A stretch of DNA of 40,000 nt from Paenibacillus tyrfis (GCF_000722545.1 NZ_JNVM01000047.1:12767-52766), one strand, 5' to 3'; positions 5,957-23,501 are shown, numbered from the stretch's first letter. Numbers and translations: made by a program. Notes: generated from the sequence alone by a model not told the origin.

Positions 5957-6685
5957 TCAAACCCCACGCTTGTTCCCCCACAATAAAGTATGTAACTGAG
6001 GGAGAACTTTAACTTGTTTTAACTCTGAGGAATCCATTACTTGATTTATCAGCCACTCATATCTCTCTAATAACTCGAACACCAATGCTTCCTTATCTGC
6101 AGTGGTTACATCCTTATTGCCGACCTGTAAAACAAGCCTCATTTGAGGATAACGCTTATGAACCTTTACGGCATACTGAAGATCATATTCATCAAAAACG
6201 ACTACTTTGATACATACTTCATTGTTCTCACCATTCAAATTCTGAATGATTCCATCAAGCTTGTCCCAATCAGTTATCATTCCTGAACTTGGTGGTTTAG
6301 GGGAAATCGTCAAATCGTCGATATCCCTCATCCACGTTTGCCATCTGCTTCCTTGTGTTTCTAGCCCAACACGAACTCCATTATCATGAAGCAAATTAAC
6401 CAAATGACCAATATTTTTTATTAGCGCAGGATTCCCACCAGAAATTGTAACATGCTCGAACGTTATTCCACCAATAGACACTAACTCATCCCAAATCGCT
6501 TGAGCAGACAGTTGCTTGATTTCTTCCTTTGCAGAACCATCCCATGTAAAAGACGAATCGCACCATGAACAGGAGTAGTCACAGCCAGCTGTTCGAACAA
6601 ACATCGTTTTCTGACCAATAACAAGTCCTTCTCCTTGAACAGTTGGCCCAAATATTTCAAGGACGGGAATCGTATTACTACTCAT
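5957..6685 (-). CDS. queE: 7-carboxy-7-deazaguanine synthase, a radical SAM enzyme of the Bacillus type (about 240 aa).
   Basis: The radical-SAM motif CDYSCSWC sits in the context VRTAGCDYSCSWCDS. The size is 242 aa. Its ATG overlaps the queD stop as ATGA (6682-6685). Confidence 0.9.
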   Translation of the reverse strand: MSSNTIPVLEIFGPTVQGEGLVIGQKTMFVRTAGCDYSCSWCDSSFTWDGSAKEEIKQLSAQAIWDELVSIGGITFEHVTISGGNPALIKNIGHLVNLLHDNGVRVGLETQGSRWQTWMRDIDDLTISPKPPSSGMITDWDKLDGIIQNLNGENNEVCIKVVVFDEYDLQYAVKVHKRYPQMRLVLQVGNKDVTTADKEALVFELLERYEWLINQVMDSSELKQVKVLPQLHTLLWGNKRGV

Positions 6686-7119
6686 GACCTATCTCCTATC
6701 CGGGGGCGATAGATCACATAGCTAGTAGGAGTTTCTCTCAAAAAAATTTGCAGACATTTGGGTTGGTTAGGAAGCGAATCTAGATAATCTTGTATTATTG
6801 TCCAAGCAGTTCGCGCAACAACTTCAGTGCTAGGAAATATGTTTCCTTGCTCCTCATTAAATAGAGGATCTTCATTGATTAATTTATGGTCAAATCGATC
6901 ATGTATAAGTGCCTTAAGATCAGAGAAATTAACAAGAAACCCCGTATCATCTAAGACATCGCCAACGATACAAACATTCATAAAATAAGTGTGACCATGT
7001 ATTCTACTGCACTTTCCAGCGAGATCACTTGGTATGTAATGCGCGGCTGCAAATTGAAGATCTTTATTCAATTCGTAAACAAACGAATGGTTCACAGAAG
7101 GATATATTTGTTGAAGCAT
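6682..7119 (-). CDS. queD: 6-carboxy-5,6,7,8-tetrahydropterin synthase.
   Basis: The motif CSRIHGHTY (CxxxHGH) is present and the size is about 145 aa. I prefer the ATG at 7119, which is preceded by GGAGGA at a 7-nt spacing. The track ORF starts five codons earlier at a TTG (7134). Confidence 0.9.
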   Translation of the reverse strand: MLQQIYPSVNHSFVYELNKDLQFAAAHYIPSDLAGKCSRIHGHTYFMNVCIVGDVLDDTGFLVNFSDLKALIHDRFDHKLINEDPLFNEEQGNIFPSTEVVARTAWTIIQDYLDSLPNQPKCLQIFLRETPTSYVIYRPRIGDRS

Positions 7120-7149
7120 ACTATCGTCCTCCAATTGAGGTATTTCTTT

Positions 7150-7803
7150 TTACTTACTTAACAGATATTCTTCCAGTCCTCTCTTACGTAAAATGCAAGC
7201 CGGGCATTCTCCACACCCGTCCGCAAGAATACCATTGTAACAAGTCAACGTATTATTACGAATATATTCGAATGCTCCCAGTTCGTCTGCAAGTTTCCAT
7301 GCTTGTGCCTTATTTAGCCACATCAATGGCGTTTCAATTACAAATTGGTAGTCCATTGATAAATTCAAAGTTACATTCAATGACTTAATAAACACATCAC
7401 GACAATCAGGGTAACCACTAAAATCGGTTTCGCACACGCCGGTGATGATATGCTTGGCTCCAATTTGTTTCGCAAGTATTGCTGCGAAAGAGAGAAAGAG
7501 AAGGTTACGCCCGTCTACAAATGTTGTCGGCAGCTTCCCCTCTTCGCTTGCTATATCAATATCTGATCGTGTTAGCGCATTAGGGGCCAATTGGTTCAAC
7601 AAGGACATATCCTGCACATGATGTTTAATGGACAGGTCCTTTGTGATTCGCGCCGCGCACTCAAGTTCAGCAGAATGGCGCTGACCATAGTTGAAAGTCA
7701 CTGCTTCAATTTCGCTAAAATGCTGTTTTGCCCAGAACAAACATGTTGTACTATCTTGTCCGCCACTAAATACCACGACGGCTTTATTATTATTTTTAGT
7801 CAT
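7150..7803 (-). CDS. queC: 7-cyano-7-deazaguanine (preQ0) synthase.
   Basis: The PP-loop [12 protein letters not shown] is present, along with the C-terminal zinc motif CYNG...[10 protein letters not shown]. The start [11 protein letters not shown] at 7803 gives about 217 aa, typical for QueC. The track ORF extends to 7860. Confidence 0.9.
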
Positions 7804-7872
7804 TAGCTTTACCCACTTTCTTACCAGTCTCATTTCTAATGATAACAGATGCCCTATCATATCGAAAGTCGA

Positions 7873-10800
7873 CTATTTATTGTCCCCTACAACTAATCTA
7901 ATCTCTACAACATCAAATAAATTTGGGAACTTTTCTTTAATTTCATCCAGCAGACGTTTCCATTGTACTGGAGGAAGTGTGCTATAACCATTTTCAACCA
8001 GTAATCGGACATGACGTTTTATTGATGGTCTGATTTGTGGACTTTCATTTATCTTTTCTAGTAGGTGATAGATATTTCCAATGTCTTCACAATCAAGGTC
8101 ATTTCTGATTACTTGGAGAAGATGCAATTTTGTTTGCTCATGCTGAAGTTTTCTTTCGGCCCAATCTCTTAGTTGATAGAAATCTATAGATTGCCATTCA
8201 GAAATTAAGGTAACCAATTCAGAACCGATAAGTTTCTTTTTCTTTAGACGATTCGCACAATTTGCTAATCTAAATTGGAGGTTCTTAATATGATCTAAAA
8301 CTTCTAACTTAATTTGAAGGCTCAGCAGATGCTTCACTAAATTCCGCGGAGTGAGAGCAAGGCAGTTGTTTAAACTTGATAGTTCCTGCACAATAGTTGT
8401 TAAGCTTGCTTTATTCGCCTCCAATTCAGACCACACTACTTCATCTTTTTCAGTAATTTCCGCTTCATCTCGTTCATAGTTTGTTTGCATGTTACACTCA
8501 GTAAGAAAGTCTGCAACTTCAAGTGCCATCTCGTCGAATTGTTTGGTTAACTGTTTTATCTCATCGTTTAAAGTAGTAGCCCTCTTATATTGAGCGGCAA
8601 GTTCTTGATTTTCTAATTCTTGTTCCAGCAAAGTGTAAGTAACAAAGTCTTGTTGTGTAACAATCTTCTTCTCGCTAAAAGCTTTAATCCGTCCAGCAAG
8701 TTCTATCAATTTCAAATTGCCCGAACCAATTAAAAATGGAATCATAGATGTTCTTTTCTGAAATGACTGCTTAAAGCTTTCGTGAAGTAGATCAGAGTAT
8801 CTGTGGTAACTTTCTTTCAATTGTGATAGAAATACCCTTAGAGTAGTGTTTCCAATTTGATAGTTTTCTAGGGTGTTCGATGGCGTGAGATTTCTAAACC
8901 AACGATCAAATTCTTCATTCGTCAACATGGCATTGCTTGGCGGCTGAAAAAAATTATCACGTAACAAGTACCAATCTGAATAACAATCCTCAAGCAGGGC
9001 TGTTAATTCTGTTCGGAAGGGAGAATATTGAATTACATTTGAGGCCCATAATGATTCACTGTATACTCGGGCATTTTGAACCCAATTTTTCATCCCGTAC
9101 ACAAAAACAGGAAGTTTCAACCCAAGAGCCTGCTCAAGAGAATTAAGCCATTCCTCATGGATTGACTCTGCTTGGTGTATCCATTTAGCAATTTCATACT
9201 CATTAGAAATTTTTTGAAATGTCTTGACCTTTTCTGAATATTTCATTGTTTGAAAGTTGGCAATTTGAATAGCAATATAACCCCTACTAACGCTTATTGT
9301 AGACTCATCATTGTTATCCTGGAGTGTAATTGGATACCGTGTTCGATTCACAACTTCATTTCGCTGAATGGTTGAGGAGGTTCTCGATGTGAATGAGCGA
9401 GACATATGAACCCCCTTTATAGCATCATGCACCAATGCCGCCACCCCAGATCTAACCGGTAATAATAATTCTTCATTTACTTCTCTTCCTTCCACCCAAT
9501 CTCTAACTACTTCTTTTTCATTGAAACCAGTATTACTATCTCTTGTCGGCTCTTCGAGAAATTGCTGCTCCTCTCTTAAGCTATTTTCAATACTATTTAG
9601 TTTAACAACGATTTGGCTGTCCTTATATCCAAAGTGCTTTAATATAGGTTCAGAAATTGTAATCTTCCCCGCTTCTTCAGATGCATACCATTCTGCGAGA
9701 GTTTTGATTAAAACATCAGTATGCTCGGCGAACATTTCCCTTCTAATAAGAGGAAGAATTCTACTAATATCTTTCTTGCCTCTTAGAAAAAAGCGAATAA
9801 CTTCTTTACTATTCAAAATCATGTAACGTAATTTCCCTTTTCCCATTGGAATTGCATCATACGTTCGCCTTAACATATGACTATTAAATGGAAGCAACTG
9901 CACTTCAATATCGCTCAATTTAGAATCATTATTGCTTGATTCTAGGGTATTACTTGAACATTGGTTGTAGTAAGGACATTCAGGAGAGCATTTAAAGCCT
10001 TGTGTTGCTTTCAACTGTGTAAGGTAATTAGCCATATATGGAATTACTTGTTTACGATCTAGGTTGAAAAAGTCTTTTCCTGACTCGTCAGATAGCCATA
10101 ACTTTTTCACACGGTCATTGATAGTATCAAGATTCTTGATTCTTTGAGTAAGACTAAATCCTTTTTCTGTGTCCTGAACCGCGCCAGGAGTTAGACCAAT
10201 TACTACATCCCAATTACCCTCTTCTAACGTAATAAGTTGATCCAATATATTTGTTGCATAAATGTTAACCGATTGAACAAGATCGTCAATTAGTAGCAAT
10301 GGACGGATACCCTTGCTTTTTATCTGCTGCGACAATTGTTTAAACAGGGTTCCAATGTCCCGTCCCTCAAAAAGAAAATGGTCTAGTTTCCGAGAAAGAG
10401 TTTGTCGAAATGGTGCATACTCCAGGGAGATATTAAGAGTCGTATTAGCAAGTAAAGATTCGAACTGCTCACGATGCAGGACTTCTAGTGGTTTTTTGAT
10501 TTTTCCTCGTTTAATTTGAGAAGTAAATTCAACAATGTTATTCTCAATTATAGGTCTCAACAATAGTGCTGCTGGAACAATTTCCTCATCGGATTCCAGC
10601 GATTCGGCAAGTGCTGTCCAAACCATTTGATTAATAAGCGTAATAGGCTTTTTGAGTAATAGCCCCCACTTATCTTCATCAATGCAAACATCTAAAGACA
10701 AATCTAATGCATCTAAACATTTTTTGATCAGTGTCTGAGGGTTTAACTCCGTTCGTGAAATTCGTATCACCGGTCGTTCAGATACTTCCACTAACCATTT

Positions 10801-11064
10801 ATCTTTTAGCCAACGAAGCAGTTCAGATTTCCCTGATCCCGTTGAACCAAATACTAAATAAACCCTGTTGCCATCAGAATCAACTTCTTTGAGTTCTTCC
10901 AGTAATTCGCCTTCCGTAACCTCGGCGATCAGTTGACTATCATTAAATCTATGCATTACTTGAGGGAAATGGGTTTTCCTAAAATACTCAGGCGATTGGT
11001 CGTAACGCTCGTCTGCAGTCCCTACTAAAAGTTTAAGCGAATTTTTGTTGAGACAAGGCATCAT
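7873..11064 (-). CDS. Large P-loop NTPase of 1063 aa. The family is not recognised.
   Basis: Walker A is VFGSTGSGKSELLRWL and Walker B-like is RPLLLIDDLVQS. A long, probably helical C-terminal region follows. The gene overlaps the upstream 258-aa ORF by 32 nt, which suggests coupling. Confidence 0.7.
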   Translation of the reverse strand: MMPCLNKNSLKLLVGTADERYDQSPEYFRKTHFPQVMHRFNDSQLIAEVTEGELLEELKEVDSDGNRVYLVFGSTGSGKSELLRWLKDKWLVEVSERPVIRISRTELNPQTLIKKCLDALDLSLDVCIDEDKWGLLLKKPITLINQMVWTALAESLESDEEIVPAALLLRPIIENNIVEFTSQIKRGKIKKPLEVLHREQFESLLANTTLNISLEYAPFRQTLSRKLDHFLFEGRDIGTLFKQLSQQIKSKGIRPLLLIDDLVQSVNIYATNILDQLITLEEGNWDVVIGLTPGAVQDTEKGFSLTQRIKNLDTINDRVKKLWLSDESGKDFFNLDRKQVIPYMANYLTQLKATQGFKCSPECPYYNQCSSNTLESSNNDSKLSDIEVQLLPFNSHMLRRTYDAIPMGKGKLRYMILNSKEVIRFFLRGKKDISRILPLIRREMFAEHTDVLIKTLAEWYASEEAGKITISEPILKHFGYKDSQIVVKLNSIENSLREEQQFLEEPTRDSNTGFNEKEVVRDWVEGREVNEELLLPVRSGVAALVHDAIKGVHMSRSFTSRTSSTIQRNEVVNRTRYPITLQDNNDESTISVSRGYIAIQIANFQTMKYSEKVKTFQKISNEYEIAKWIHQAESIHEEWLNSLEQALGLKLPVFVYGMKNWVQNARVYSESLWASNVIQYSPFRTELTALLEDCYSDWYLLRDNFFQPPSNAMLTNEEFDRWFRNLTPSNTLENYQIGNTTLRVFLSQLKESYHRYSDLLHESFKQSFQKRTSMIPFLIGSGNLKLIELAGRIKAFSEKKIVTQQDFVTYTLLEQELENQELAAQYKRATTLNDEIKQLTKQFDEMALEVADFLTECNMQTNYERDEAEITEKDEVVWSELEANKASLTTIVQELSSLNNCLALTPRNLVKHLLSLQIKLEVLDHIKNLQFRLANCANRLKKKKLIGSELVTLISEWQSIDFYQLRDWAERKLQHEQTKLHLLQVIRNDLDCEDIGNIYHLLEKINESPQIRPSIKRHVRLLVENGYSTLPPVQWKRLLDEIKEKFPNLFDVVEIRLVVGDNK

Positions 11065-11809
11065 TTAAATCACATCTCCTCTCCACCTTTATCCAATTGA
11101 AGTCATTTTTAGGTCCATATGATTTATAGGGTAAATCTTGCACGTAACTCAACTCCAACGCCCCTTCTTGATGTAACGCCATTAAAGAAAAGATAACCCC
11201 TCTGTATATATTTCCTTCAGATGTTAAGCACGGTATGACCGGATGAATAATATTTTCACAAAATGGATGCAATCCACCCTCCCATGCCTCATTCCCCTTA
11301 ATGATACTTTTCATTAACGAAAGCTGTGGAAGTGCATAGAAACCTGAGTATATACGTCTACCCAATCCCCAGCACTCCATCATTCGCTTCCAGGCATTAA
11401 CTTTCTCGTGCCCGACTAATGTTTTCATTAATTGGCTATTGATTTGATAGTGAATATTACTCACAAACAATCGATCCGGCTTTACAAATAACTGTTCAAA
11501 CAGGGAAGCAAATATTTTATCAAGCGAATCGCTAGGTAGATCTTCAGACATTGAAAGTTCCCTTAACTTAAAAAAAACCTCTTTGTTGCACCATGGCTTG
11601 TCTTGTAGTACAAAAAATTGAGATTTGTCTTTATATACAAACTGTAGATCCTCTAATACGGTCAAGCCGCATTCAATTAAAGATGTAATGTCCCCGTTAT
11701 CACCATACTGAAATCTTGTTTTTAACATCTTTACATCCAGTCCTGGATTAGTTCTTAAATTTTCATAAATCACTTCAATTTCCGGTCCGTAGCACATTTG
11801 AAACAACAT
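11033..11809 (-). CDS. Hypothetical protein of 258 aa with no recognisable motif.
   Basis: This is a long ORF packed into the operon. It overlaps both neighbouring genes, by 35 nt upstream and 32 nt downstream. An alternative start exists at M5 (11797). Confidence 0.55.
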   Translation of the reverse strand: MLFQMCYGPEIEVIYENLRTNPGLDVKMLKTRFQYGDNGDITSLIECGLTVLEDLQFVYKDKSQFFVLQDKPWCNKEVFFKLRELSMSEDLPSDSLDKIFASLFEQLFVKPDRLFVSNIHYQINSQLMKTLVGHEKVNAWKRMMECWGLGRRIYSGFYALPQLSLMKSIIKGNEAWEGGLHPFCENIIHPVIPCLTSEGNIYRGVIFSLMALHQEGALELSYVQDLPYKSYGPKNDFNWIKVERRCDLNDALSQQKFA

Positions 11810-12707
11810 GCTCGCTCCTCCTCTTCTTATTTTCTAAAATATCGTTAAATGTTCTAAGTAAGTGGTAATAGTTATGGATTGATCTTAACTTCATATATTC
11901 TCTTGGGGATGGGACTAATATTTGTCTTGCATCGTTTTCACATACAGGGCATTCACAATGAAGCGGATTTTCCAATCGCGGACTTGTGGGTTTAGCTCGA
12001 GATTCTGAGAGGAAAAAGGTTCTAAATGGCCTGCTGTAGAACACTTGAAAGAACGCAGCTGCCATCGTTGGTCGTGTTGAATCAAATGAGCTTACACCAA
12101 TATCAACCATTGCACTGAGTTGGGGAATTCCTGTTACTCCAAATACATGCAGGTTTGAAGGCCCTACAACATCTGCTGCCCTTCTGATCATTTCAATTTG
12201 CTGGGTCTGATGTTTAAAAAGTAACGATCCAATTCCAAACTTCGTATACCCCATTTTGATCAGTTCATAAGCTGAAAACTCAATACTAGCTTGGTCATAA
12301 CCTTGAATGACTCCCATTGGTTGAACAGATTTCGGAAGATTACATTTATGAAAAATATTGAAATACTCATACGCATTAAATAGCGTTCTTTCTATCGCCA
12401 TGTAACGTTCAGATAAAGAGAACTTATTTAACAATGGTTCGTCAAAATGAACCATTCGAACAATTGCTTCTTTTTCGCAATCTTCTAAGAGCGAGAGTTG
12501 AATATCAAAAACATCTTTTAGCGGAGGCCTAACTTTTTGTTTAACATAAAACACTGACCCACAGTCTAGTATTAGCTTGCTAGGTTTATTTTTATACCTT
12601 TTTACTCCTCCTCTATTGTCTGGTATTGCACTAATTAAAACTGGACATTGAGGAAAGTAATCACAAAATATTGCATCACTATGTGACCAACCAATATAAA
12701 ATTCCAT
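11775..12707 (-). CDS. TGT-fold transglycosylase, DpdA-like, 310 aa.
   Basis: TGT-type motifs are present in the canonical order: ILDCGSVFY (compare DSGGFQ), MGVIQG, GYTKFGIGSL, HVFGVTG and GVSSFDSTRP (the catalytic Asp region). The zinc motif CECPVC is followed by His in IHNYYH. An AGGAG SD sequence lies 8 nt upstream of the ATG. Confidence 0.8.
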   Translation of the reverse strand: MEFYIGWSHSDAIFCDYFPQCPVLISAIPDNRGGVKRYKNKPSKLILDCGSVFYVKQKVRPPLKDVFDIQLSLLEDCEKEAIVRMVHFDEPLLNKFSLSERYMAIERTLFNAYEYFNIFHKCNLPKSVQPMGVIQGYDQASIEFSAYELIKMGYTKFGIGSLLFKHQTQQIEMIRRAADVVGPSNLHVFGVTGIPQLSAMVDIGVSSFDSTRPTMAAAFFQVFYSRPFRTFFLSESRAKPTSPRLENPLHCECPVCENDARQILVPSPREYMKLRSIHNYYHLLRTFNDILENKKRRSEHVVSNVLRTGN

Positions 12708-12731
12708 ATCCTCATCTCCTAGCTCAAATAA

Positions 12732-12768
12732 TATACGTGATTATACGTGATAATTTGATTGTATCACA
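12732..12768 (-). promoter_or_regulatory. Candidate promoter/operator for the DpdA-like operon segment.
   Basis: A perfect tandem 10-mer, tatacgtgat x2, occupies 12732-12751. On the minus strand its junction forms TATAAT (12740-12745), about 33 nt upstream of the ATG. The -35 candidate TGTGAT (12763-12768) is weak. An imperfect palindrome, GTGATA-N9-TATCAC, overlaps the region. Confidence 0.4.
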
Positions 12769-12796
12769 GTTCACCATCACTCATCTACTCTTTGAA

Positions 12797-12825
12797 TATA
12801 AAAAAAAGAAGCCATCAGGCTTCTT
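12797..12825 (-). terminator. Intrinsic terminator immediately after the 264-aa ORF, inside the gene cluster.
   Basis: The stem pairs aagaagcc (12806-12813) with ggcttctt (12818-12825). The 4-nt loop contains the stop codon. On the minus strand the hairpin is followed by a T-run of 8 or more. Confidence 0.7.
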
Positions 12826-13609
12826 TTATCCATTGTCTCCATATTTCATATATTAAATCGCGTTGTGCATCATTAAATTTAAAACTTCCTTTATTAACAA
12901 GTAGCACTGGGTTGTCTCGGTCAAAAAACTGACCATTCCAATTCTCATAATGAAATTCTTCTGTGAGTAGCGGCCGCGGCTGATTGGTTAGATGAGAATC
13001 CTCAGTCCACTGCTCCATGAAATATCTAATATAGCAATACCAGGCAATGGCTGAGTCAGCAATGGATTTTTTTCGAAATTGTTTCCTCTGTGCTACAGGA
13101 AGATATCCTAGTTCAGGATAATGATTCATTATAGATTCAACATATTTAATTAAATCTTTAGCTAATTGAGGACATAGGCTATGTTCAACTCGATACCTTT
13201 GAAAGTCCTTGAAAATATCATGCAGCGATCTAATGGTCATTAATTTTGTGGAGTTGCTGCTTATTTTCTCCCCCTTCTCAATCAACCGCTCAAAACGCTC
13301 ATATGACATTAATTGATGCATACAGTAGCTAGGAAAGTACTGGGTTTCAGATACAATTAGAACGACGTATTCATCACTGATACTGCCGTTGGGCAATTTA
13401 TAAGTAAACCGGGGGTTCGTCACTTGTAACTTATCGTTTAAAAAACTTACCACAGTATCATAATTTACTAAAATGACGTCTTCGCCAACTACATCAGACT
13501 GAATTATAGAAAAACCCCAGTCTTTAATCACACCTAATGGCAGTACAGCAAGATACACGTCACTATTCTTTCTGGTTAAATTTCTTACGTTTTCAAAAGT
13601 AAAAACCAT
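12815..13609 (-). CDS. Hypothetical protein of 264 aa with no recognisable motif.
   Basis: This is a long ORF in operon context. The SD-like sequence GGGGGA lies upstream of the ATG. I saw no ParB/DGQHR, nuclease or methyltransferase motif. Confidence 0.55.
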   Translation of the reverse strand: MVFTFENVRNLTRKNSDVYLAVLPLGVIKDWGFSIIQSDVVGEDVILVNYDTVVSFLNDKLQVTNPRFTYKLPNGSISDEYVVLIVSETQYFPSYCMHQLMSYERFERLIEKGEKISSNSTKLMTIRSLHDIFKDFQRYRVEHSLCPQLAKDLIKYVESIMNHYPELGYLPVAQRKQFRKKSIADSAIAWYCYIRYFMEQWTEDSHLTNQPRPLLTEEFHYENWNGQFFDRDNPVLLVNKGSFKFNDAQRDLIYEIWRQWIKEA

Positions 13610-13623
13610 GGAATTTCCCCCAA

Positions 13624-13664
13624 CGCAAATATGCCTTAGTGTATCACACTAAGGCATATTTGCG
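13624..13664. repeat. Perfect 19-bp inverted repeat with a 3-nt loop, filling most of the 57-bp intergenic gap.
   Basis: The arms are cgcaaatatgccttagtgt and acactaaggcatatttgcg, checked base by base. No U-tract follows on the coding (minus) strand. The hairpin abuts the RBS of the 264-aa ORF. Confidence 0.9.
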
Positions 13665-13666
13665 CA

Positions 13667-15697
13667 CTAATTATTCCACTGTTTTTTTAATTCTTGAATT
13701 TGACTGTAGTAGACATGAGTATTATGAAACCCTCTTCGTCTGTTTCTATTATTACCTCTAAATACAATCACATCGATTCCAATTTCCTTACATATATTAC
13801 AGCCACATTGTTCCCATGGACGTTCAGACAAAACCTCTCTATAGAGATCCTCATGCACTTCGCGCTTCTCCCCTAGAATTTTATCATATTCCAGTATAGC
13901 TTCAAGTGTGGATGATAATTCCCTTTTCCCAGCACTGAATTCCCTTAAAGCGATTAATGCCTCCTGTTCGAGCCTCTTATATTGATCAAACTCAATCTCA
14001 TCATTATTTTGCATCATTTTTTTTACTCTTCCGGACGTTTCTTTTGCTTCAGGTATTCTAATCGCTGTGTAATGTTTACCACTTAAGGTATGATAGTTAT
14101 GTCCAGTTCCTAACCACGCTCTTCTTAAGGGAGAAGATGAGTCAAACGAAGTCACGCCTAGTTTATGGAAGGATTCCATTGTTTTCATATCTCGTGCAAC
14201 TCCAAACAAGTGCATACGAAACGTAGGACTCGGAATAACAGGTGCTATTTCTTTAAGAATTTCATATATTTTTTCAGATTGTTCTCTGGCTAAACCACCC
14301 AAGGCAATATAGTCATAACCTAGTCCAATAAGATGCTCTACTGCTCTACGGAAAGAAGGTGGGTCCCATCCTTGAACTATACCTATCGGATGAAACTGAT
14401 AATTCCTTGTCTCCTTATTCTCCCTATACATCCGTATAAACTCTTCCGCCATAGTAAGGGTTAGTTCATAACGCTGATTTCTTATATTTTCATCTCTTTG
14501 AAAAGGGCCTACTATTAGATGGTCAATTGACACTCCATAATCAAACCCCAGTTTGTGGTAGTAGTCAATGATCTCTTGAGTAGTATAAGGCGGGACTTCT
14601 TTATCAATATAACTAAAGGCACCGCAATCACCCATAATCGGATATTCTCTAGGAAGTCGATAAAATTCGTGCAATCCCATATCTTGAATCATCTGATTTT
14701 TCAACTTTGTAGCATTATCGATGTTCACTTTAGAAACAAGGAGTCCATCAAATTGAGGTCTTTCAAAAATCTGATGAGCGTACACATCGTTTTCTAATGG
14801 ATTTCTATTCTTCTCAGAGAAATCACTCATAAAATCATAATTTGGATCGACCCTATCATCATTCTCTGGAAGATAAAATTTTGGTTCTTCAATGCAATTT
14901 ATAGCAACTAACTCATCTGGCACAGGAAACATTTCATTATAAAACAGTAATAAGTCTTCATTTCCTGATATGTCACTAAAAAGTTCAAGTTGTTTTTTAG
15001 AGGAAATTGAATTGAAAATATACTCTCTAATTTGATTAGGACTATACATAATTGCGTCCCACTTTAGATCAATGTTATCCGAAATGATGCTCTTTAATAA
15101 ATGTGAAAAAAGATAACCCTTGATTCCTATCAAACCATATTTAAATGTCTTAGCTTCTTTTTCCCCAATAGTTAATACATGATAATCGTCCCAATTTAGA
15201 ATCCTAGAACGACTGGATGCTCCAGCAAAAAAGATCGCTTTTTGATTACTTTGTAGCTTTAATGGCCACTCCACTGCTTGCAAATATTTATCTCCAAGTA
15301 AGAAAAAAATAAGATCATAGTCCGCAACTTTTGTTTGCAAAGCTTGTGTAATTTCAAGTTCGCGCGCCCATTTTTTTATAGTCTGCGAGTCCATTGTATT
15401 GAAAGTCACTTCATAGGGAACAATCTGAGAGTTTTCATTCAAAAGACCATAACCCGCTGAAATAATGCATAGGTCAATTTTTCCACCTTGTTGCCGATAT
15501 TCTTTAATACCACTCATTAGAGCAAGGTGCTGACTCCCTGTGTACATTTCATCAGCACGTTCTTTGAATTCCAACAATTCTGCTTCTCTTTGTTTTAATA
15601 CATCTTTATTCTTGAAATCATCGAATACAAGTTGATTTATCGGTTTATGTAACTTCTCTCCAGTACAAGAAGTGACAACAAGAATACGTTTTGACAA
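13667..15697 (-). CDS. Fusion protein of 676 aa. An N-terminal DUF6884/YaaA-like domain is joined to a C-terminal TGT-fold (DpdA-like) transglycosylase.
   Basis: The C-terminal half carries MGDCGAFSY, IGIVQG, GYDYIALGGL, HLFGVA, GVTSFDSSSP and the zinc motif CGCNIC followed by His (FHNTH). The N-terminal ~200 aa carry ILVVTSCTGEK, then MYTG, then CIISAGYGLL...IVPYEVTF...KKWA. From memory, this pattern matches DUF6884 and resembles the YaaA/DUF328 core. The start is TTG, with AAAGGATGGG upstream. Confidence 0.75.
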   Translation of the reverse strand: MSKRILVVTSCTGEKLHKPINQLVFDDFKNKDVLKQREAELLEFKERADEMYTGSQHLALMSGIKEYRQQGGKIDLCIISAGYGLLNENSQIVPYEVTFNTMDSQTIKKWARELEITQALQTKVADYDLIFFLLGDKYLQAVEWPLKLQSNQKAIFFAGASSRSRILNWDDYHVLTIGEKEAKTFKYGLIGIKGYLFSHLLKSIISDNIDLKWDAIMYSPNQIREYIFNSISSKKQLELFSDISGNEDLLLFYNEMFPVPDELVAINCIEEPKFYLPENDDRVDPNYDFMSDFSEKNRNPLENDVYAHQIFERPQFDGLLVSKVNIDNATKLKNQMIQDMGLHEFYRLPREYPIMGDCGAFSYIDKEVPPYTTQEIIDYYHKLGFDYGVSIDHLIVGPFQRDENIRNQRYELTLTMAEEFIRMYRENKETRNYQFHPIGIVQGWDPPSFRRAVEHLIGLGYDYIALGGLAREQSEKIYEILKEIAPVIPSPTFRMHLFGVARDMKTMESFHKLGVTSFDSSSPLRRAWLGTGHNYHTLSGKHYTAIRIPEAKETSGRVKKMMQNNDEIEFDQYKRLEQEALIALREFSAGKRELSSTLEAILEYDKILGEKREVHEDLYREVLSERPWEQCGCNICKEIGIDVIVFRGNNRNRRRGFHNTHVYYSQIQELKKQWNN

Positions 15698-15728
15698 AAA
15701 AATCCCATCCTTTACTCACACCAATATA

Positions 15729-15752
15729 AAATAGGGCGAGAACGCCCTATTT
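15729..15752 (-). terminator. Terminator-like hairpin overlapping the stop codon of the transporter gene.
   Basis: The stem pairs aaatagggcg with cgccctattt (10 bp) around a 4-nt loop. It is followed by tatatt on the minus strand. The U-tract is weak, so termination may be only partial. Confidence 0.5.
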
Positions 15753-16265
15753 CCAAACAACTTTTGCATGCTTTAAAAAAATTTTTTTCACAATAATTGC
15801 AGCAAATAATTGAACCAATGTCTTAACAATGATTTGACCAACAATCGCCAGAAATACAGCATTCCAGGGAAGAATATTGGCCCCCAATGGTGATAGTCCC
15901 ACAACAACAAAAATAATACTATCTAGTATTCCTCCAACAATACCACTGTATGCTACCCTCATATGAAAAGGTAGTTTAAGGCGTGAATAAATTTCTGTAT
16001 CTGTAGTCTCGGATACCGCAAATGTAATGATTGAAGCAAATACAATCCAAAGTGTATCCCCAAGTAAATATGATGTTAATGCCGATAAAACCATTGCTAT
16101 TAAAATGAGTAAATAGGTCTTCCGCCTACCAACAAAATTTTGCACAAAATCGCGGAATATAAATGTTGCCCCTATTATAAATGTCCCTGCCGGAATAATA
16201 AAGGGTCCAATAAAAAATGGGGGTATTCCTGCTGTTACGACATTTGAAGAAATAATAGCCAGCAA
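15747..16265 (-). CDS. Queuosine-precursor (preQ0/preQ1) transporter of the YhhQ/VUT family. This is a short form.
   Basis: The protein is polytopic and hydrophobic. GATFIFRDFVQNFVGRR resembles the YhhQ core (compare FLxTDxxxExYG), and GGILDSIIFVVVG resembles the C-terminal family motif. The listed start is TTG. An in-frame ATT at 16292 has a better-placed SD sequence (AAGAGG, 16302-16307). An in-frame stop at 16299-16301 caps the N-terminus. Confidence 0.65.
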   Translation of the reverse strand: MLAIISSNVVTAGIPPFFIGPFIIPAGTFIIGATFIFRDFVQNFVGRRKTYLLILIAMVLSALTSYLLGDTLWIVFASIITFAVSETTDTEIYSRLKLPFHMRVAYSGIVGGILDSIIFVVVGLSPLGANILPWNAVFLAIVGQIIVKTLVQLFAAIIVKKIFLKHAKVVWK

Positions 16266-16474
16266 ATAAGCTACAATTGTTAAATATTTAATTTTACATC
16301 ACCTCTTCAATTCAATCCATCATTAATTATAACACCACTTTTTGTTCCGAGCTACCCTTGCCAAGCTAATTAATTTATCCAATCATTGGCTAGCTTGAAG
16401 GTACAGGGCAACATCTTGTTCTACTTGATAATCTATCAAATCGAGTTATTTTAGGAAGGGTATAAATACAATAG

Positions 16475-17045
16475 TTATCTTACTCTCCCATACATCACCC
16501 GCTTATCCCCATCAAACAAATTCCGACAAACCACCTGCCCACGCCTGGAGGATGCATCGACCGCCTAGCCATTCCCTGCATAAATACCTACATGCGTAAT
16601 ATCCATAAAACGACCATTCTGTTCATAACTCCAGAAGACCAAATCACCTGTTGCTAAATCTTCATATTGTATTGCCATCTCATTTTCTAAATATAACGTG
16701 CCTGCTCCGCTGCAGTGCGCGGCAACTGAATATTTAGCTGCTTATAAACCCATTGCACAAGGTAACTACAATCTGTGTAGCGATCCTGCCCCGCCTTCGG
16801 CTGGCTATACGGATCACCCAAGCGAGATCAATGCCAGCTTAACAGCCTCAACGCCTCGCTCCTCCTCTGACAAATCACGATAAACAAGTTCAAGCTGTTC
16901 CTGAGATAATCCTGTGTCGCTGTCCTTGCCCAAAAGTGCAAACATAAGTGGTCTGAACTCCTCTGACAACAGCTCCTCCATAAGTGAATCCTGAAGCTGT
17001 AGGCTGCTGATTGCTCATCTGCTGTTCGGCTGGTAATGGTTTTAT
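16475..17045 (-). pseudogene. Decayed NlpC/P60 cell-wall hydrolase gene of the type found on conjugative elements.
   Basis: The minus-strand translation gives LGDPYSQPKAGQDRYTDCSYLVQWVYKQLNIQLPRTAAEQARY in one frame. It gives ENEMAIQYEDLATGDLVFWSYEQNGRFMDITHVGIYAGNG-stop-AVDAS in another. That is at least two frameshifts plus a premature stop. The 5' limit is approximate. Confidence 0.65.
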
Positions 17046-17155
17046 CGTATCATGGTTAAAAGGAACTACGAAGAATTTCTTTCATTAATATAAAAAAAGA
17101 ACAGCCCAATTTGTCTGACTGTTCACTCTACATCTGTAATCTCTGCTCAATGCGC

Positions 17156-17269
17156 TCATCCCATTGAGGAGAATCCGACCGATATGTTATTGAAAATACT
17201 AATCCCTAGCCGATCAACGATGAGATTACAAATTGTACTTTTTCCGCTGCTATTGTTACCCGCAAAGAC
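17156..17269 (-). pseudogene. Orphan P-loop fragment, a gene remnant.
   Basis: The minus strand reads VFAGNNSSGKSTICNLIVDRLGISIF, which includes a Walker A motif. The fragment is bounded by an in-frame stop upstream and another 38 codons later, and it has no start codon. Confidence 0.35.
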
Positions 17270-17385
17270 TTACATCATTGGAATCGTTTCATGCATACGA
17301 GATATCCGGGTCACCTGTTGATTTCCTTTCCCAAAAACAACCACCCCCATTCCGATTCGTAGAACTGGCTTCCGGGCTCCCCTTG

Positions 17386-17556
17386 TTAAATTCCACCTTG
17401 ATTCCTGAGCCATTCCTCTATTATTTCAATAGAAAAAATAATCCTTCTTCGAATTCTAACATGAGGAATTTGTTTTTCCCGAACCATTGCATAGATACTG
17501 TCGGTTGATACATTTAAATACTGGGCTATCTCAGAAACAGTAAAAATTTTTTTCAA
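17386..17556 (-). CDS. xis: Excisionase-family (MerR/AlpA-type) HTH DNA-binding protein of 56 aa.
   Basis: The ORF is below the track's length cut-off, so I translated it by hand: (TTG)MKKIFTVSEIAQYLNVSTDSIYAMVREKQIPHVRIRRRIIFSIEIIEEWLRNQGGI. It fits the excisionase-family pattern (T..E.A..L.vs...iy..v....iP..rig.r..f....i..Wl). AAAGGAA lies upstream of the start. Confidence 0.7.
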   Translation of the reverse strand: MKKIFTVSEIAQYLNVSTDSIYAMVREKQIPHVRIRRRIIFSIEIIEEWLRNQGGI

Positions 17557-17979
17557 GTTACATCATTCCTTTACTATATTTCTAATCATTTTTTTGTTAA
17601 AATGTACCTGCATCTACCACGCGAGCTCTCCTCATGCTCGTGCCTGTTCTCCACAGGCCAAAACAGCACTCAGCTGTAATCACGCTCCCCCTAGCGGCTA
17701 AAGTTATGCTCTCTTTAAGCATGCCTAATTCGTGATTAAACGCGGAGAACCTGAATTCCAAGCTGTCTTCTCAATTCTCCCGATCTAGCTAATAACTTTT
17801 AAATTGCAAACACTTTGAGAAATTTATCTCAAGGTGTTTTTAATGTGCATATTAATTTTTAATCGAATCGGTTCACTTACAGTGCGCCTGTAAACATATT
17901 AAAAAAGTTTGTTTCCCTTGGAGGTGTTCTGCTCGAACTCATTATTAAAAGTATAGTCATTGCTTTGCTTTTCCTTGAA

Positions 17980-18000
17980 ATCCTTAGTCTGACTAAGGAT
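17980..18000. repeat. 21-bp palindrome atccttagtc-t-gactaaggat.
   Basis: The palindrome has perfect 10-bp arms around one central base. It lies in the 660-bp non-coding stretch upstream of the 284-aa ORF. Confidence 0.85.
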
Positions 18001-18169
18001 GATTTAATCCTACTATTTCACGTTGTATAAAGCTTTTGATGGGGATTAGGTACAAAGTGGTTTCAATTTATGCATATTTACAGATTCAAGTTCCTACGTC
18101 TAATAATTTTTAGTGGAGGTGTACCATATAGTATCAAATCTTTCCTTTTATACGACGGGTTTACGAATA

Positions 18170-18184
18170 CTTAGTCGGACTAAG
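18170..18184. repeat. 15-bp palindrome cttagtc-g-gactaag, with the same core as the palindrome at 17980-18000.
   Basis: The palindrome has perfect 7-bp arms. It lies 33 bp upstream of the listed start of the 284-aa ORF. Confidence 0.8.
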
Positions 18185-18216
18185 AATTTCAATAGCACTC
18201 CTAAAACTGCGATATC

Positions 18217-19071
18217 ATGGTTAGTGGTGATGAACATATGACACTTGATCCAATAATGTATAAGACGAATCGCAGCACAGTACACGAGCACTACAACATA
18301 TACTTAATTGAGACCCAGAAGAAAGAGCCCGTAGATAGTGCAGTTGTTGAAGCAAGAAATAACATTCTAAGCCTTTTCCATTATGAACTGCTTATTTTGC
18401 AAAGTTCCAAAGAGCATTGGGAAAGGCTGATGAACGATCCCAGTCTTAATTTTAGGCGAGAGTTATGTGCTAAACTCTACAGACTCGAACGGGCAGATAT
18501 CATGGTAGAGCTAGATCTATCAAGTGGTGCAGTAAGTAATCTATTTAACGAATCTACCAAGCCAAATTGGCCGCGGCCATTTCAACTTAGCGTTCTTTTT
18601 GAGCACCCGTGGCAGCTTATCAATTATGAGATTCCTGATCCATATTCTTACTCTGAATCGCCGGAGTACTTTGAAGAAAGAGTATCAAAAAAAATACACC
18701 TTAATGATCTGGCGAATGAAAGATCAAAAGTATTGAGCATTAGAGGATACGTGATTGTCAATGCCCCAGAGTTGTTCCAACAGGAATCAACTGCTTTAAC
18801 CGGTCGCTGGGTGACGACATACCCCGAATTTGATTACTTTGAATTTCATCTGAATCACGAGCCTATAATCGATAAGGTGCTTCGGGAATCACTTCTGAAA
18901 CTGTTTCCGATGGCTAACCACATGATTACAACATATCGTCCATTTAAGCCGCTAACCAAACGGGCGTTATGGGTCATTATCCCTAAAAACGAAACATCAC
19001 CTTCATACGAAGGAATTCTTCACGAACTGAAGAAGTATCGGGAGCATACGGAATACCACAGACTGAAATAG
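18217..19071 (+). CDS. Hypothetical protein of 284 aa with a possible HTH segment.
   Basis: The ORF is in the track. The segment RRELCAKLYRLERADIMVELDLSSGAVSNLFN looks XRE/HTH-like. The start could be the ATG at 18238 instead. The family is not recognised. Confidence 0.5.
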   Translation: MVSGDEHMTLDPIMYKTNRSTVHEHYNIYLIETQKKEPVDSAVVEARNNILSLFHYELLILQSSKEHWERLMNDPSLNFRRELCAKLYRLERADIMVELDLSSGAVSNLFNESTKPNWPRPFQLSVLFEHPWQLINYEIPDPYSYSESPEYFEERVSKKIHLNDLANERSKVLSIRGYVIVNAPELFQQESTALTGRWVTTYPEFDYFEFHLNHEPIIDKVLRESLLKLFPMANHMITTYRPFKPLTKRALWVIIPKNETSPSYEGILHELKKYREHTEYHRLK

Positions 19072-19185: not shown

Positions 19186-20727
19186 GTGGACCACTTCGAA
19201 AAAACAAAATCTTCGAACCAAAACCCTCACCAGATCAATGATCTGGAATCTACAAAAAAACAAGAATCTTTTCGGCAGAATGCTTCTTTTGCCGAAAAGA
19301 TTCTTCTCAATGAAGGTATGTTTACTCGCCGTGGTGACGATCATGATATTAGAAAAATAACCCGAGCGAGGATTGAGAACATGCTCTATGCAAACAGCCT
19401 ACAGCAGTTAGAAACACCCGTAAACATTTACCTTGGCCGACAAGGAATCAACCAATGGATATGGGAAAACAAAGTGATCTTAGAGATCCCAACGGAAATA
19501 TTAAAGAAGTATCTCCTTCGCAAAATGACCAAAGATGCCTTTATTTTCTATAAAGAGTATATCATGGTCCACGAACTAGCACAAAAAATTGGCGTCTATT
19601 TGAAAATACCTGCAAGCCAAATTATGGATGAACAACTACTGAGTGATGAAGTTTTGACTTATTTATCAACATCACTTGCAACAACTGGCATGCAACAAAA
19701 ACTGATAGCGTTTGTCGTTCAGCATGCCAATCAGTATCTAAAAACTCCCTTGCACAATACAGAAAAATATAGCCTTCTATTTTCTCCGCTAAAAAATCGT
19801 AAAGGAAAGCCAGTTCACCCGAAAATTGAAATGTATATGAAGCAGTTAACAAAAGAAGGAAAATCCGGACATACCCTAGCAAGAGTCACAACTCACATCA
19901 ATTCTATGCTGTTCTGGTTAGTTAACAATATGAAGGATTTCGCAGCATGTAAAACTCATACAGTTCCAATCTTATCTATTAAAGAGATGCACCTACAGGA
20001 ATTTCGTTCCTACCTTCTAAAGAAACAACGAAAAGGAGAGTACAGCTCAATCACCATCAGTGAATGCATCTATGCGATTAAAAGCTTCTTTCTATTTTTG
20101 CAAAAAACTTATGGGTTTCCAGACCCCGCAAAAAAGATTAAATCAATCAAAGCGTCTCGATATCGTTTCCGAAACCTGCCTACTAAAGAACAGATCACTG
20201 CGTTTTTTAATGTGATTGAAACGTATTCCGAAAATCCACTTTTGGAGCGTATCGCTTTTCAATTTATGCTTACACTTGGCTTGCGCTCTATGGAAGTTTC
20301 GCAAATATCCTTGAATGACATTAATATGGAGATCCGAACGATTTCTATTCACAGCAAAGGCGGAAAACATCACGAACTGCCGCTGGCGGGAAAACTCTAT
20401 CGTGATCTAGAAATGATCAAGAGTATTCCATCAACGTCAAAGTACTTATTTGGCGATGATCCAAAAAAGATGATAAGAGAACTTCAAGAAAACTATAAAT
20501 TATACAGTCAAATCGCTGGCTGGACTTTCCCTGGTGGATTACATTTGTTCCGTCATTGTTTCGTAACGAATCTAGCGGGTCAAAACCCGCCACCACAAGT
20601 GCTTCAGGCACTTTCCCGGGTAATTAAGATGGATACGGTCAGTTTATATACCCATCTTAATCAGAAGTCGAATTGGCTTTCTCAAGAATTGAATAAGCTT
20701 GATTATTCATATCAAGGAGGTAAATGA
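19186..20727 (+). CDS. Tyrosine recombinase, first gene of the trio (513 aa, with a long N-terminal extension).
   Basis: Motifs: LGLRSMEVSQISLNDI (Arg), HLFRHCFVTNLA (HxxR) and VSLYTHL (Tyr). The start is GTG, preceded by GGAGGA at a 7-nt spacing. Confidence 0.85.
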   Translation: MDHFEKTKSSNQNPHQINDLESTKKQESFRQNASFAEKILLNEGMFTRRGDDHDIRKITRARIENMLYANSLQQLETPVNIYLGRQGINQWIWENKVILEIPTEILKKYLLRKMTKDAFIFYKEYIMVHELAQKIGVYLKIPASQIMDEQLLSDEVLTYLSTSLATTGMQQKLIAFVVQHANQYLKTPLHNTEKYSLLFSPLKNRKGKPVHPKIEMYMKQLTKEGKSGHTLARVTTHINSMLFWLVNNMKDFAACKTHTVPILSIKEMHLQEFRSYLLKKQRKGEYSSITISECIYAIKSFFLFLQKTYGFPDPAKKIKSIKASRYRFRNLPTKEQITAFFNVIETYSENPLLERIAFQFMLTLGLRSMEVSQISLNDINMEIRTISIHSKGGKHHELPLAGKLYRDLEMIKSIPSTSKYLFGDDPKKMIRELQENYKLYSQIAGWTFPGGLHLFRHCFVTNLAGQNPPPQVLQALSRVIKMDTVSLYTHLNQKSNWLSQELNKLDYSYQGGK

Positions 20728-21833: not shown

Positions 21834-21846
21834 GGAGATCCAATAG

Positions 21847-23377: not shown

Positions 23378-23501
23378 CAATACTGTAATTTATGTCATCC
23401 ACGTTTCTTTTGAAACATTAAGGGGAAAAATGTAAATATACTTTGCTGATTTTTCATTCTTTACAGCAGAGCACAACACTCTGGAGTTGGAGAGATTTAG
23501 T

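Follow-up and report, generated by a model that had tools for sequence, protein, structure and literature searches.

On the question of how the transglycosylase DpdA reaches a base within duplex DNA, published work has contributed only the requirement for a ParB-like ATPase, DpdB. The question is raised again by a 40,000-nucleotide (nt) stretch of the Paenibacillus tyrfis chromosome (the window), in which a low-GC island (36-40% GC, at approximately 1-24.7 kb) lies within DNA of approximately 60% GC and, as judged by a DpdA domain, DpdE, DpdF and the genes for synthesis of 7-cyano-7-deazaguanine (preQ0), is a Dpd system. To our knowledge, Dpd is the most complex restriction-modification system known. 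The island encodes two TGT-type proteins, one of 310 amino acids (sTGT) and one of 676 amino acids, where the canonical island has a single dpdA. The original prediction for this DNA had recognised both points, and had proposed a heteromeric transglycosylase, two enzymes with different sequence contexts or bases, or a paralogue repurposed as a reader or sensor of modification status. It had overlooked the absence of DpdB and the linkage of sTGT to a 258-residue tandem winged-helix protein (wH) and a 1063-residue DpdH-like ATPase (H'). The interpretation that we tentatively place first is that sTGT, wH and H' could constitute a DpdB-independent module for the insertion of 7-deazaguanine into DNA, which coexists with a DpdC-DpdA fusion protein.

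The two TGT-type proteins of the island

Both proteins were matched by Pfam TGT (PF01702), with 55.3 bits for sTGT and 53.7 bits for the 676-residue protein against a gathering score of 26.3. Inspection of both open reading frames (ORFs) and mapping onto the Salmonella Montevideo DpdA structure 7UI4 showed that they are divergent TGT/DpdA paralogues that keep the catalytic Asp residues and the CxCxxC...H site, as had been predicted, and the motifs quoted in that prediction are present (ILDCGSVFY and GYTKFGIGSL in sTGT; MGDCGAFSY and GYDYIALGGL in the 676-residue protein). sTGT fails the NCBIfam DpdA model NF041059 (75 bits against a cut-off of 200, matching profile positions 85-263 only) and is 25-28% identical to the larger protein across approximately 170-220 residues. 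Catalytic residues were mapped using 7UI4 and its accompanying paper, in which Asp95, Asp130, His181 and Asp256 are shown or proposed to be catalytic and zinc is bound by Cys368, Cys370, Cys373 and His395 (PMC10164549). Residues D48, D89, Q135 and D209 of sTGT align with the four catalytic positions, in that order, and its zinc ligands are C251, C253, C256 and H278, with a Cys-to-His spacing of 22 that is the same as that between Cys373 and His395 of DpdA. All of these residues, together with other core residues, are invariant among 24 family members with identities down to 35%, and the ratio of nonsynonymous to synonymous substitution (dN/dS) of 0.09-0.11 against four orthologues indicates strong purifying selection. 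By these measures sTGT looks like an active enzyme, and the idea of a decaying duplicate was rejected because the catalytic residues are conserved and dN/dS is approximately 0.1; neither copy has lost critical residues.

That sTGT is a degenerating copy of dpdA, or an ordinary tRNA enzyme that came to lie in the island by chance, is extremely improbable. Annotation pipelines name it 'queuine tRNA-ribosyltransferase', which together with its score below the DpdA cut-off would suit such an origin; the low dN/dS and the invariance of the catalytic residues across phyla would not, and its scores are far below the equivalog cut-offs of the tRNA enzymes themselves (27 against 307 bits for Tgt, 23 against 350 bits for the archaeal enzyme, arcTGT). 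sTGT also lies beside dpd or preQ0-pathway genes in 37 of 37 genomic loci (see below), and the grouping of the short proteins apart from DpdA domains in a distance tree argues, with weak support, against a recent duplicate. Both TGT-type genes of the window sit in a mobile dpd island and not in a tRNA context, contrary to the idea that both might prove to be tRNA enzymes.

Alignment with DpdA showed that sTGT is without the N-terminal Ins1 segment and without the four-helix bundle of Ins8, a segment of approximately 70 residues that would lie between the nucleophile motif and the zinc motif. Ins1 and the Ins8 bundle are described as conserved among DpdA proteins, in which they are proposed to form a positively charged crescent that binds double-stranded DNA (PMC10164549). 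As aligned, sTGT is a minimal catalytic core, composed of the TIM-barrel and the zinc site, that fails two defining features of the DpdA family, as would be expected if DNA binding were provided by another protein.

Among 5.8 billion proteins searched, 91 relatives of sTGT were found, all of approximately 300 amino acids and mostly from Bacillales, and a profile run exhaustively against 1.84 billion cluster representatives returned only 41 at E <= 1e-30. Beyond the family the profile reaches mainly DpdA-type proteins of 400-870 amino acids, mixed with other short TGT-like proteins, and among solved structures DpdA 7UI4 ranks first (E 5e-16), followed by arcTGT (2e-8) and bacterial TGT (approximately 1e-6). 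In a neighbour-joining tree with capped distances, to which phage 9g DpdA1 and Escherichia coli Tgt were added, the sTGTs of the surveyed loci have none but other short proteins in their group, with the DpdA domains placed apart, which lends weak support to sTGT as a small, ancient sister clade of DpdA. Taken by these comparisons, sTGT is probably a new TGT subfamily. A phage origin was considered and rejected, as tblastn against 50,697 phage records gave no match and no PHROG was hit; the sTGT profile also failed to detect phage 9g DpdA1, the sole phage DpdA that was compared directly. The DpdA domain of the window matched one record only in the same phage collection.

The 676-residue protein passes NF041059 (455 bits, profile positions 2-405 of 406), and its residues 271-668 match 7UI4 with an E value of 4e-90. 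This domain contains the motifs GDCGAF, SIDH, GIVQGW, SFDSS and CGCNIC...H and has Ins1 and the helical bundle of Ins8 along with the zinc site; by these features it is a complete DNA-guanine transglycosylase. Residues 1-160 match DUF6884 and the PADLOC model of DpdC (E 1.5e-11), covering approximately the first 110-150 of approximately 300-320 positions; the NCBIfam scan gave no match for this N-terminal domain, with no DpdC model among its hits. DpdC has been equated both with DUF6884 (bioRxiv 10.1101/2025.02.24.639861) and with DUF328/PF03883 (bioRxiv 10.1101/2025.10.09.681413). Because dpdC directly precedes dpdA in canonical islands, the protein was assigned as a DpdC-DpdA fusion, and its earlier description as a DpdA paralogue therefore holds for one domain of a two-domain protein. 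Such fusions are common among the loci examined and are present too on cyanobacterial plasmids, on one of which a DndB/DGQHR (DpdB-type) protein is encoded but a second TGT is not. DpdC of the characterised system turns DNA-bound preQ0 into 7-amido-7-deazaguanine (ADG).

On another cyanobacterial plasmid, pNOS3756_2 of Nostoc sp. NIES-3756 (L034, 12789-18450), a gene for a 315-residue TGT-like protein lies between two Hel308-like helicase genes and adjoins a DpdC-DpdA fusion, with no DpdB annotated nearby. This protein is 24% identical to sTGT, is closer to generic and archaeal TGT models and shows no CxCxxC zinc motif in the alignment; the locus may represent a further, independent instance of a dpd-type setting with two TGTs.

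Proposed partners of sTGT and the absence of a detectable DpdB

Loci encoding sTGT were gathered from genomes with the sTGT profile (29), from plasmids (2), by exact protein look-up (5) and from metagenomes (77), and counts were made on 37 genomic and 74 metagenomic loci (111 in total), the latter mostly on short contigs. The gene adjoins dpd or preQ0-pathway genes in all 37 genomic loci, which come from Bacilli, Clostridia, Chloroflexota and one Deinococcus plasmid (Bacillota, Chloroflexota and Deinococcota), and it is accompanied by both wH and H' in 35 of them. A full DpdA, usually as a DpdC fusion, is encoded in 27 of the 37, or in 27 of the 32 (approximately 85%) that have adequate flanks; three DpdA-less loci are on truncated contigs and five are adequately flanked (L021, L023, L039, L041 and L042). 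Metagenomic loci agree with this pattern where their flanks allow, with DpdA, wH and H' found in six of the seven that have at least 9 kb on both sides. Two phmmer queries and library hidden Markov models detected no DpdB/DGQHR homologue among the 37 genomic and 74 metagenomic loci, and NCBIfam, Pfam and PADLOC detected none in the window. Canonical plasmid dpdA loci carry dpdB next to dpdA, DpdB is present in 92% of genomes with dpdA (RNA Biology review), and DpdA has been shown biochemically to require the ATPase DpdB (NAR 2023 biochemistry paper).

In the window the start of wH overlaps the end of sTGT by 35 nt and the start of H' overlaps the end of wH by 32 nt; overlaps among the three genes in other loci are 1-4 nt. 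The C-terminal tail of sTGT (…SNVLRTGN; 11775-11809), which is encoded in the 35-nt overlap, is kept in many but not all orthologues, and residues Y7-G8-P9-E10 at the N-terminus of wH are invariant, so that conservation of the tail may reflect the constraint of overlapping frames alone. Pfam, NCBIfam, PADLOC and PHROGs gave no match for wH. Its AlphaFold2 model (pLDDT 89) is a string of winged-helix domains, for which fold matches were weak and the best were multi-winged-helix proteins (SelB WH2-4, RPC34/62 and Nse1/3), and by these searches it belongs to no described family. Homology to DpdG (NF041064) was considered and rejected, with an hhalign probability of 0.2% and no NCBIfam match for the window protein; the sole signal was a marginal NCBIfam hit of the Deinococcus orthologue (E 2e-4).

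H' is 100% identical to a P. tyrfis protein. Its N-terminal region (residues 25-350) is a distant relative of DpdH/BrxC-type ATPases, and its C-terminal part is long and helical. A Walker A motif (G73-S80), a Walker B motif (D260/D261) and a cluster of three cysteines (C359/C363/C369) are invariant. The protein scored 30 bits against the NCBIfam DpdH model NF041065, over the N-terminus only and far from the cut-off of 450, whereas jackhmmer reached canonical DpdH with an E value of 6e-30 and hhalign gave a probability of 78% over residues 13-114, confining the homology to the ATPase domain. Foldseek matches of its AlphaFold2 model (pLDDT 83) were the RdrA, TrwB and Cdc6/ORC ATPases. H' is not the DpdH orthologue, because the Deinococcus plasmid has an annotated DpdH besides its own copy of H'. 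A nuclease or other effector domain was sought in H' and wH by Pfam, by sequence search of the PDB and by Foldseek, and none was found.

Several comparisons of gene order and identity place the sTGT/wH/H' unit with modification. The genes for wH, H' and DpdC-DpdA in Clostridia and Chloroflexota run in a single co-directional array, and sTGT is transcribed divergently from it. On a Ktedonobacteraceae contig (L024), sTGT, wH, H' and DpdC-DpdA stand alone; they are flanked at one end by a Tn3 transposase and a pentapeptide-repeat protein and at the other by an integrase, and nothing homologous to DpdD-K lies within 10 kb. Between the window and Paenibacillus glucanolyticus (L002), the block from the YhhQ transporter gene to H' is 86-96% identical and DpdE only 38% identical, whereas L006 has the same block with a DpdE that is 88% identical to that of the window. 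Because identity of the block is high while that of DpdE varies, the block appears to recombine as a unit independent of the restriction genes. The preQ0 genes between them (5957-7860) are also a mosaic in L002-L006, with identities to the window of 84-87% for QueE, 67% for QueC and 28-32% for QueD, and DpdE at 38% in L002-L005 and 88% in L006; by these identities, cassettes are exchanged within the island.

The five adequately flanked DpdA-less loci are clostridial (organisms with such loci include Desulfotomaculum defluvii and Desulfocucumis palustris) and share the order DpdH-I-J-K-D, sTGT, wH-H'-HTH (helix-turn-helix regulator), followed by QueC and QueD in L023 and L041. sTGT here occupies the position that dpdCAB has in canonical islands; one of the five ends in ordinary genes and another in a trio of recombinases. 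As a restriction system with preQ0 genes needs a writer, sTGT is the sole candidate seen in these loci, and some Dpd-like loci thus seem to have sTGT as their only transglycosylase. Of the three options first proposed, that of two enzymes is accordingly the best supported, sTGT being the only TGT in five Dpd loci and its nucleophile always being kept. The HTH regulator gene directly follows H' in L023, L039, L041 and L042, and in L023 (3881-5046) and L041 (13639-14803) it is followed by a gene for an HhH-GPD base-excision glycosylase; a DNA glycosylase beside a base-exchange enzyme may be functionally linked to it.

The same gene orders bear on the reader or sensor option, under which sTGT, wH and H' would be paralogues of the DpdG/DpdH type that flip guanines, check for 7-deazaguanine and license or block DpdE, DpdF, DpdJ and DpdK, leaving DpdC-DpdA as the sole writer. 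This we regard as improbable. The ATPase domain of H' is homologous to DpdH, a BrxC-like member of the dpdD-K restriction set, the succession of a small protein and a large ATPase mirrors the order dpdG-dpdH, and the triad abuts DpdD, DpdK and DpdJ in clostridial loci. Those clostridial loci, however, would then have restriction and preQ0 synthesis genes and no writer. Inheritance of the block follows DpdC-DpdA and not DpdE/F, and the four-gene unit of L024 exists away from restriction genes; homology of wH to DpdG was not detected, canonical DpdG/DpdH are also encoded in loci such as L001 and L032, and a strictly conserved nucleophile Asp suggests chemistry over mere binding.

An obligate heteromer, in which sTGT pairs with the DpdA domain in the manner of QTRT2 with QTRT1 or of the bacterial TGT homodimer and so replaces DpdB, with wH and H' as accessory proteins, is unlikely, although it accounts for the co-occurrence of DpdA and sTGT in 27 of 32 adequately flanked genomic loci and six of seven well-flanked metagenomic ones. 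It also suits three loci (L027, L030 and L044) in which sTGT adjoins a DpdA-type gene without wH or H' nearby and without DpdB. TGT-family enzymes usually dimerise, described examples being the QTRT1/QTRT2 heterodimer and the homodimer of Cap10. sTGT nevertheless retains the nucleophile and the general acid, unlike the non-catalytic QTRT2, which has lost these catalytic residues, and a conserved terminator separates the two genes in Bacilli. The option is weakened chiefly by the five loci with sTGT, wH and H' but without DpdA and by S. Montevideo DpdA being monomeric in the crystal and in solution (PMC10164549); what stands of it is the co-occurrence.

In the mechanism proposed for the DpdB-independent module, QueC, QueD and QueE, together with the host FolE and the YhhQ-type importer, would supply preQ0, which both TGT-fold enzymes would use. 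sTGT would be an active guanine/7-deazaguanine transglycosylase that acts on DNA in complex with wH and H', with wH supplying DNA binding and H' supplying an ATP-dependent step, as DpdB does for DpdA in Salmonella. The DpdC-DpdA protein would probably use the same ATPase, because it too has no DpdB and, in other phyla, is co-transcribed with wH and H'. The two writers would have different site preferences or tasks, for example with one inserting preQ0 and the other both inserting it and converting it to ADG through its DpdC domain, and unmarked DNA would be restricted by DpdE, DpdF and the products of genes past the window edge. All of this mechanism is inferred from the comparisons: the complex, DNA as its substrate, the inserted base and the role of the ATPase. 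More tentatively again, sTGT may be an unrecognised family of DNA 7-deazaguanine transglycosylases in which a winged-helix adaptor and a DpdH/BrxC-like ATPase replace DpdB, such that two mechanistically different writers mark one genome.

Five points weigh against this interpretation. The DpdA-less loci were examined over 10 kb, and a DpdA could lie farther out or at another genomic site. DpdH, of which H' is a paralogue, is part of the canonical restriction arm, and this could point to sensing and not writing. The bootstrap values for the split between sTGT and DpdA are weak (34-37% and 56%). A very divergent ParB-like protein could have escaped the queries and models used for DpdB. The lack of wH and H' in L027, L030 and L044 indicates that the triad is not obligatory and that the two TGTs may be a true functional pair.

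The last of these, L044, is a metagenome-assembled, Deinococcus-like contig of 11.8 kb, on which (6478-11686) a distant, 316-residue short TGT is convergent with a DUF6884-TGT fusion. The fusion is followed by QueC, a radical-SAM QueE-like gene, QueD and QueF, and the contig carries no winged-helix/ATPase pair and no restriction genes; the presence of QueF suggests preQ1, and not preQ0, as the base.

Gene inventory and borders of the island

All island genes up to 16.3 kb lie on the minus strand, in the transcription order YhhQ/Vut transporter, DpdC-DpdA, U264, sTGT, wH, H', QueC, QueD, QueE, DpdE and DpdF (Table 1). The start codon of DpdF lies within the end of dpdE, and the positions of DpdG-K and DpdD would fall past the window edge.

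The two TGT genes are not adjacent but are separated by a gene for a conserved 264-residue protein (U264), and the terminator that had been predicted between them is present and follows U264. This protein has no family in Pfam, NCBIfam or PADLOC and a single marginal PHROGs hit (E 0.006); 17 orthologues were found in related loci, in the Bacilli versions only, and none outside those loci. Its dN/dS is 0.09-0.17, and in Bacilli loci its gene is always directly after DpdC-DpdA and is followed by the terminator. Counts of terminator-like hairpins and promoter-like sites in this region are not above those of shuffled sequence. A hairpin with a T-run nevertheless lies directly after the U264 gene in 16 of 16 related Bacilli loci, and because these keep different, self-complementary stems, the element at 12804-12827 is probably a genuine intrinsic terminator. 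With the candidate promoter upstream of sTGT, this agrees with the earlier view that the two TGT genes are separately transcribed.

Table 1. Features of the Dpd island in the P. tyrfis window, with coordinates counted from the first letter of the window
Feature	Coordinates	Strand	Evidence
DpdF helicase	1-2433	-	NCBIfam DpdF equivalog, 858 bits (cut-off 550); 3' part beyond the window edge
DpdE, SNF2-type helicase of the Dpd restriction arm	2426-5761	-	NCBIfam DpdE, 941 bits (cut-off 500); PADLOC DpdE, 736 bits
QueE, 7-carboxy-7-deazaguanine synthase	5957-6685	-	TIGR03365, 377 bits (cut-off 206)
QueD-like 6-carboxytetrahydropterin synthase	6682-7134	-	Pfam PTPS, 100.6 bits; TIGR03367, 84.6 bits, just below 89.25
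QueC, preQ0 synthase	7150-7860	-	TIGR00364, 275 bits (cut-off 150)
H', 1063-residue P-loop ATPase	7873-11064	-	Pfam AAA_22; weak BrxC_BrxD; NCBIfam DpdH, 30 bits
wH, 258-residue tandem winged-helix protein	11033-11809	-	AlphaFold2 model; no library family
sTGT, 310-residue minimal TGT-fold protein	11775-12707	-	Pfam TGT, 55.3 bits
Candidate sigma-70-like promoter upstream of sTGT	12740-12767	-	GTGATA, 16-nt spacer, TATAAT; 10 of 12 positions; pattern match only
Probable intrinsic terminator directly 3' of the U264 ORF	12804-12827	-	10-bp stem, 4-nt loop, T-run
U264, 264-residue conserved protein between the two TGT genes	12815-13609	-	No family match
DpdC-DpdA fusion (676 residues), whole gene	13667-15697	-	Two domains
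DpdA domain, residues 271-669 of the fusion	13691-14887	-	NCBIfam DpdA, 455 bits (cut-off 200)
DpdC-like N-terminal domain of the fusion (DUF6884, YaaA-related)	15218-15697	-	Pfam DUF6884, 49 bits (30)
YhhQ/Vut queuosine-precursor transporter, first gene of the modification block	15747-16265	-	Pfam Vut_1, 58.6 bits; TIGR00697, 42 bits, below 51
Three consecutive tyrosine recombinases, mobile-element end of the island	19186-22785	+	
Phage-type integrase, mobile-element end of the island	23487-24677	+	

The YhhQ/Vut transporter has 172 amino acids and a TTG start, and aligns from approximately position 61 of the Pfam model (of 152) or position 99 of TIGR00697 (of 201). Its orthologues in related loci are similarly short (119-186 amino acids in ORF calls); the start that was called could be wrong, or this could be a truncated version of the protein. 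Beyond it, 16265-18217 is a 2-kb stretch without a long ORF, in which pieces of an NlpC/P60-like gene, split over two frames (16565-16821), and a short HTH ORF resembling an excisionase (17386-17556) look like the debris of the mobile element. A 284-residue ORF upstream of the recombinase trio (18217-19071, plus strand) had no match in Pfam, NCBIfam, PADLOC or PHROGs. The island ends at approximately 24.7 kb with a jump in GC content from 38% to 65%. The clostridial sTGT island L042 likewise ends in three consecutive tyrosine recombinases (14380-17969), which suggests that this Dpd variant rides on a recombinase-trio mobile element. Rfam at gathering score, which would include a preQ1 riboswitch, and a search for tRNA genes gave no hits in the window.

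Relation to known systems and significance of a proposed second writer

The island shares with the canonical Dpd system of S. Montevideo, in which DpdA, DpdB and DpdC are the writers and DpdD-K carry out restriction, the DpdA domain, a DpdC-type domain, DpdE, DpdF and the preQ0 genes. Related loci also have DpdD, DpdJ, DpdK and DpdH, and the logic is the same, namely that self is marked with 7-deazaguanine and unmarked DNA is restricted. It differs in having no DpdB, in the fusion of DpdC to DpdA and in the additional sTGT/wH/H' unit and U264, and some of its relatives are without DpdA, with sTGT alone remaining. With bacterial DpdA and phage DpdA1-4, sTGT has in common the TIM-barrel, three active-site Asp residues and the CxCxxC...H site, 7UI4 being its best-scoring solved relative; the missing Ins1 and 70-residue Ins8 bundle and the low score on the DpdA model set it apart. 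Two divergent TGT paralogues in one pathway recall QTRT1/QTRT2, a parallel that has been drawn for the requirement of DpdA for DpdB (NAR 2023). In the island, by contrast, both paralogues keep their catalytic residues, the context is DNA defence and loci exist with only one of the two.

Defence systems with a recruited TGT-fold protein are known from type IV CBASS (Cap10) and, by description, from the BREX-related BRC systems. The nucleic-acid-binding surfaces of Cap10 are remodelled, and it acts within a complex of proteins (Cap10 preprint); BRC combines a TGT with a BrxC-like ATPase and is without DpdB or DpdC (BREX/BRC paper). The island has no CD-NTase, Cap9, PglZ, HerA or GNAT. A Cap10-like role, in which sTGT would bind a 7-deazaguanine covalently linked to a partner protein and transfer or tether it to nucleic acid, is very improbable. 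Cap10 is a TGT-fold defence protein with an intact catalytic Asp, a protein-linked deazaguanine and no tRNA-binding surfaces, and sTGT is likewise stripped of its nucleic-acid-binding insertions and tightly coupled to its partners. However, the only QueC of the island is a standard equivalog and no Cap9-like conjugating enzyme accompanies it, wH (MLFQMCYGPE) and H' (MMPCLNK) have no glycine-rich N-terminus such as is modified in CBASS, and sTGT matches only DpdA models in PADLOC at E <= 0.01, the presence of a Cap10 model in PADLOC not being established.

Neither a second TGT paralogue nor the sTGT/wH/H' triad was found in the Dpd and 7-deazaguanine literature covered here (NAR 2023 biochemistry, phage DpdA1-4, RNA Biology review, GATOR-GC, YprA/BRIGADE, BREX/BRC and Cap10), and a mention in the 2016 PNAS, 2018 Mol Microbiol or 2013 Aravind-lab work is possible. 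What departs from the described modification module is, on comparative evidence, the absence of DpdB together with the presence of the sTGT/wH/H' unit, an elaboration of a known system. Searches that require both dpdA and dpdB, as in the GATOR-GC study, will miss these islands in annotation and mining.

For the family, the consequence would be that a lineage across at least three phyla appears to have discarded DpdB and to keep a minimal TGT paralogue, usually with wH and a DpdH-like ATPase. Such a lineage offers an independent solution to the problem of access to duplex DNA, and a direct experimental handle on it. If the proposed mechanism is true, the genome would carry two classes of site or two marks (dPreQ0 and dADG) that could be read in combination by the restriction arm, and should the two enzymes differ in the sites or bases that they mark, the result would be a two-mark epigenetic label of self.

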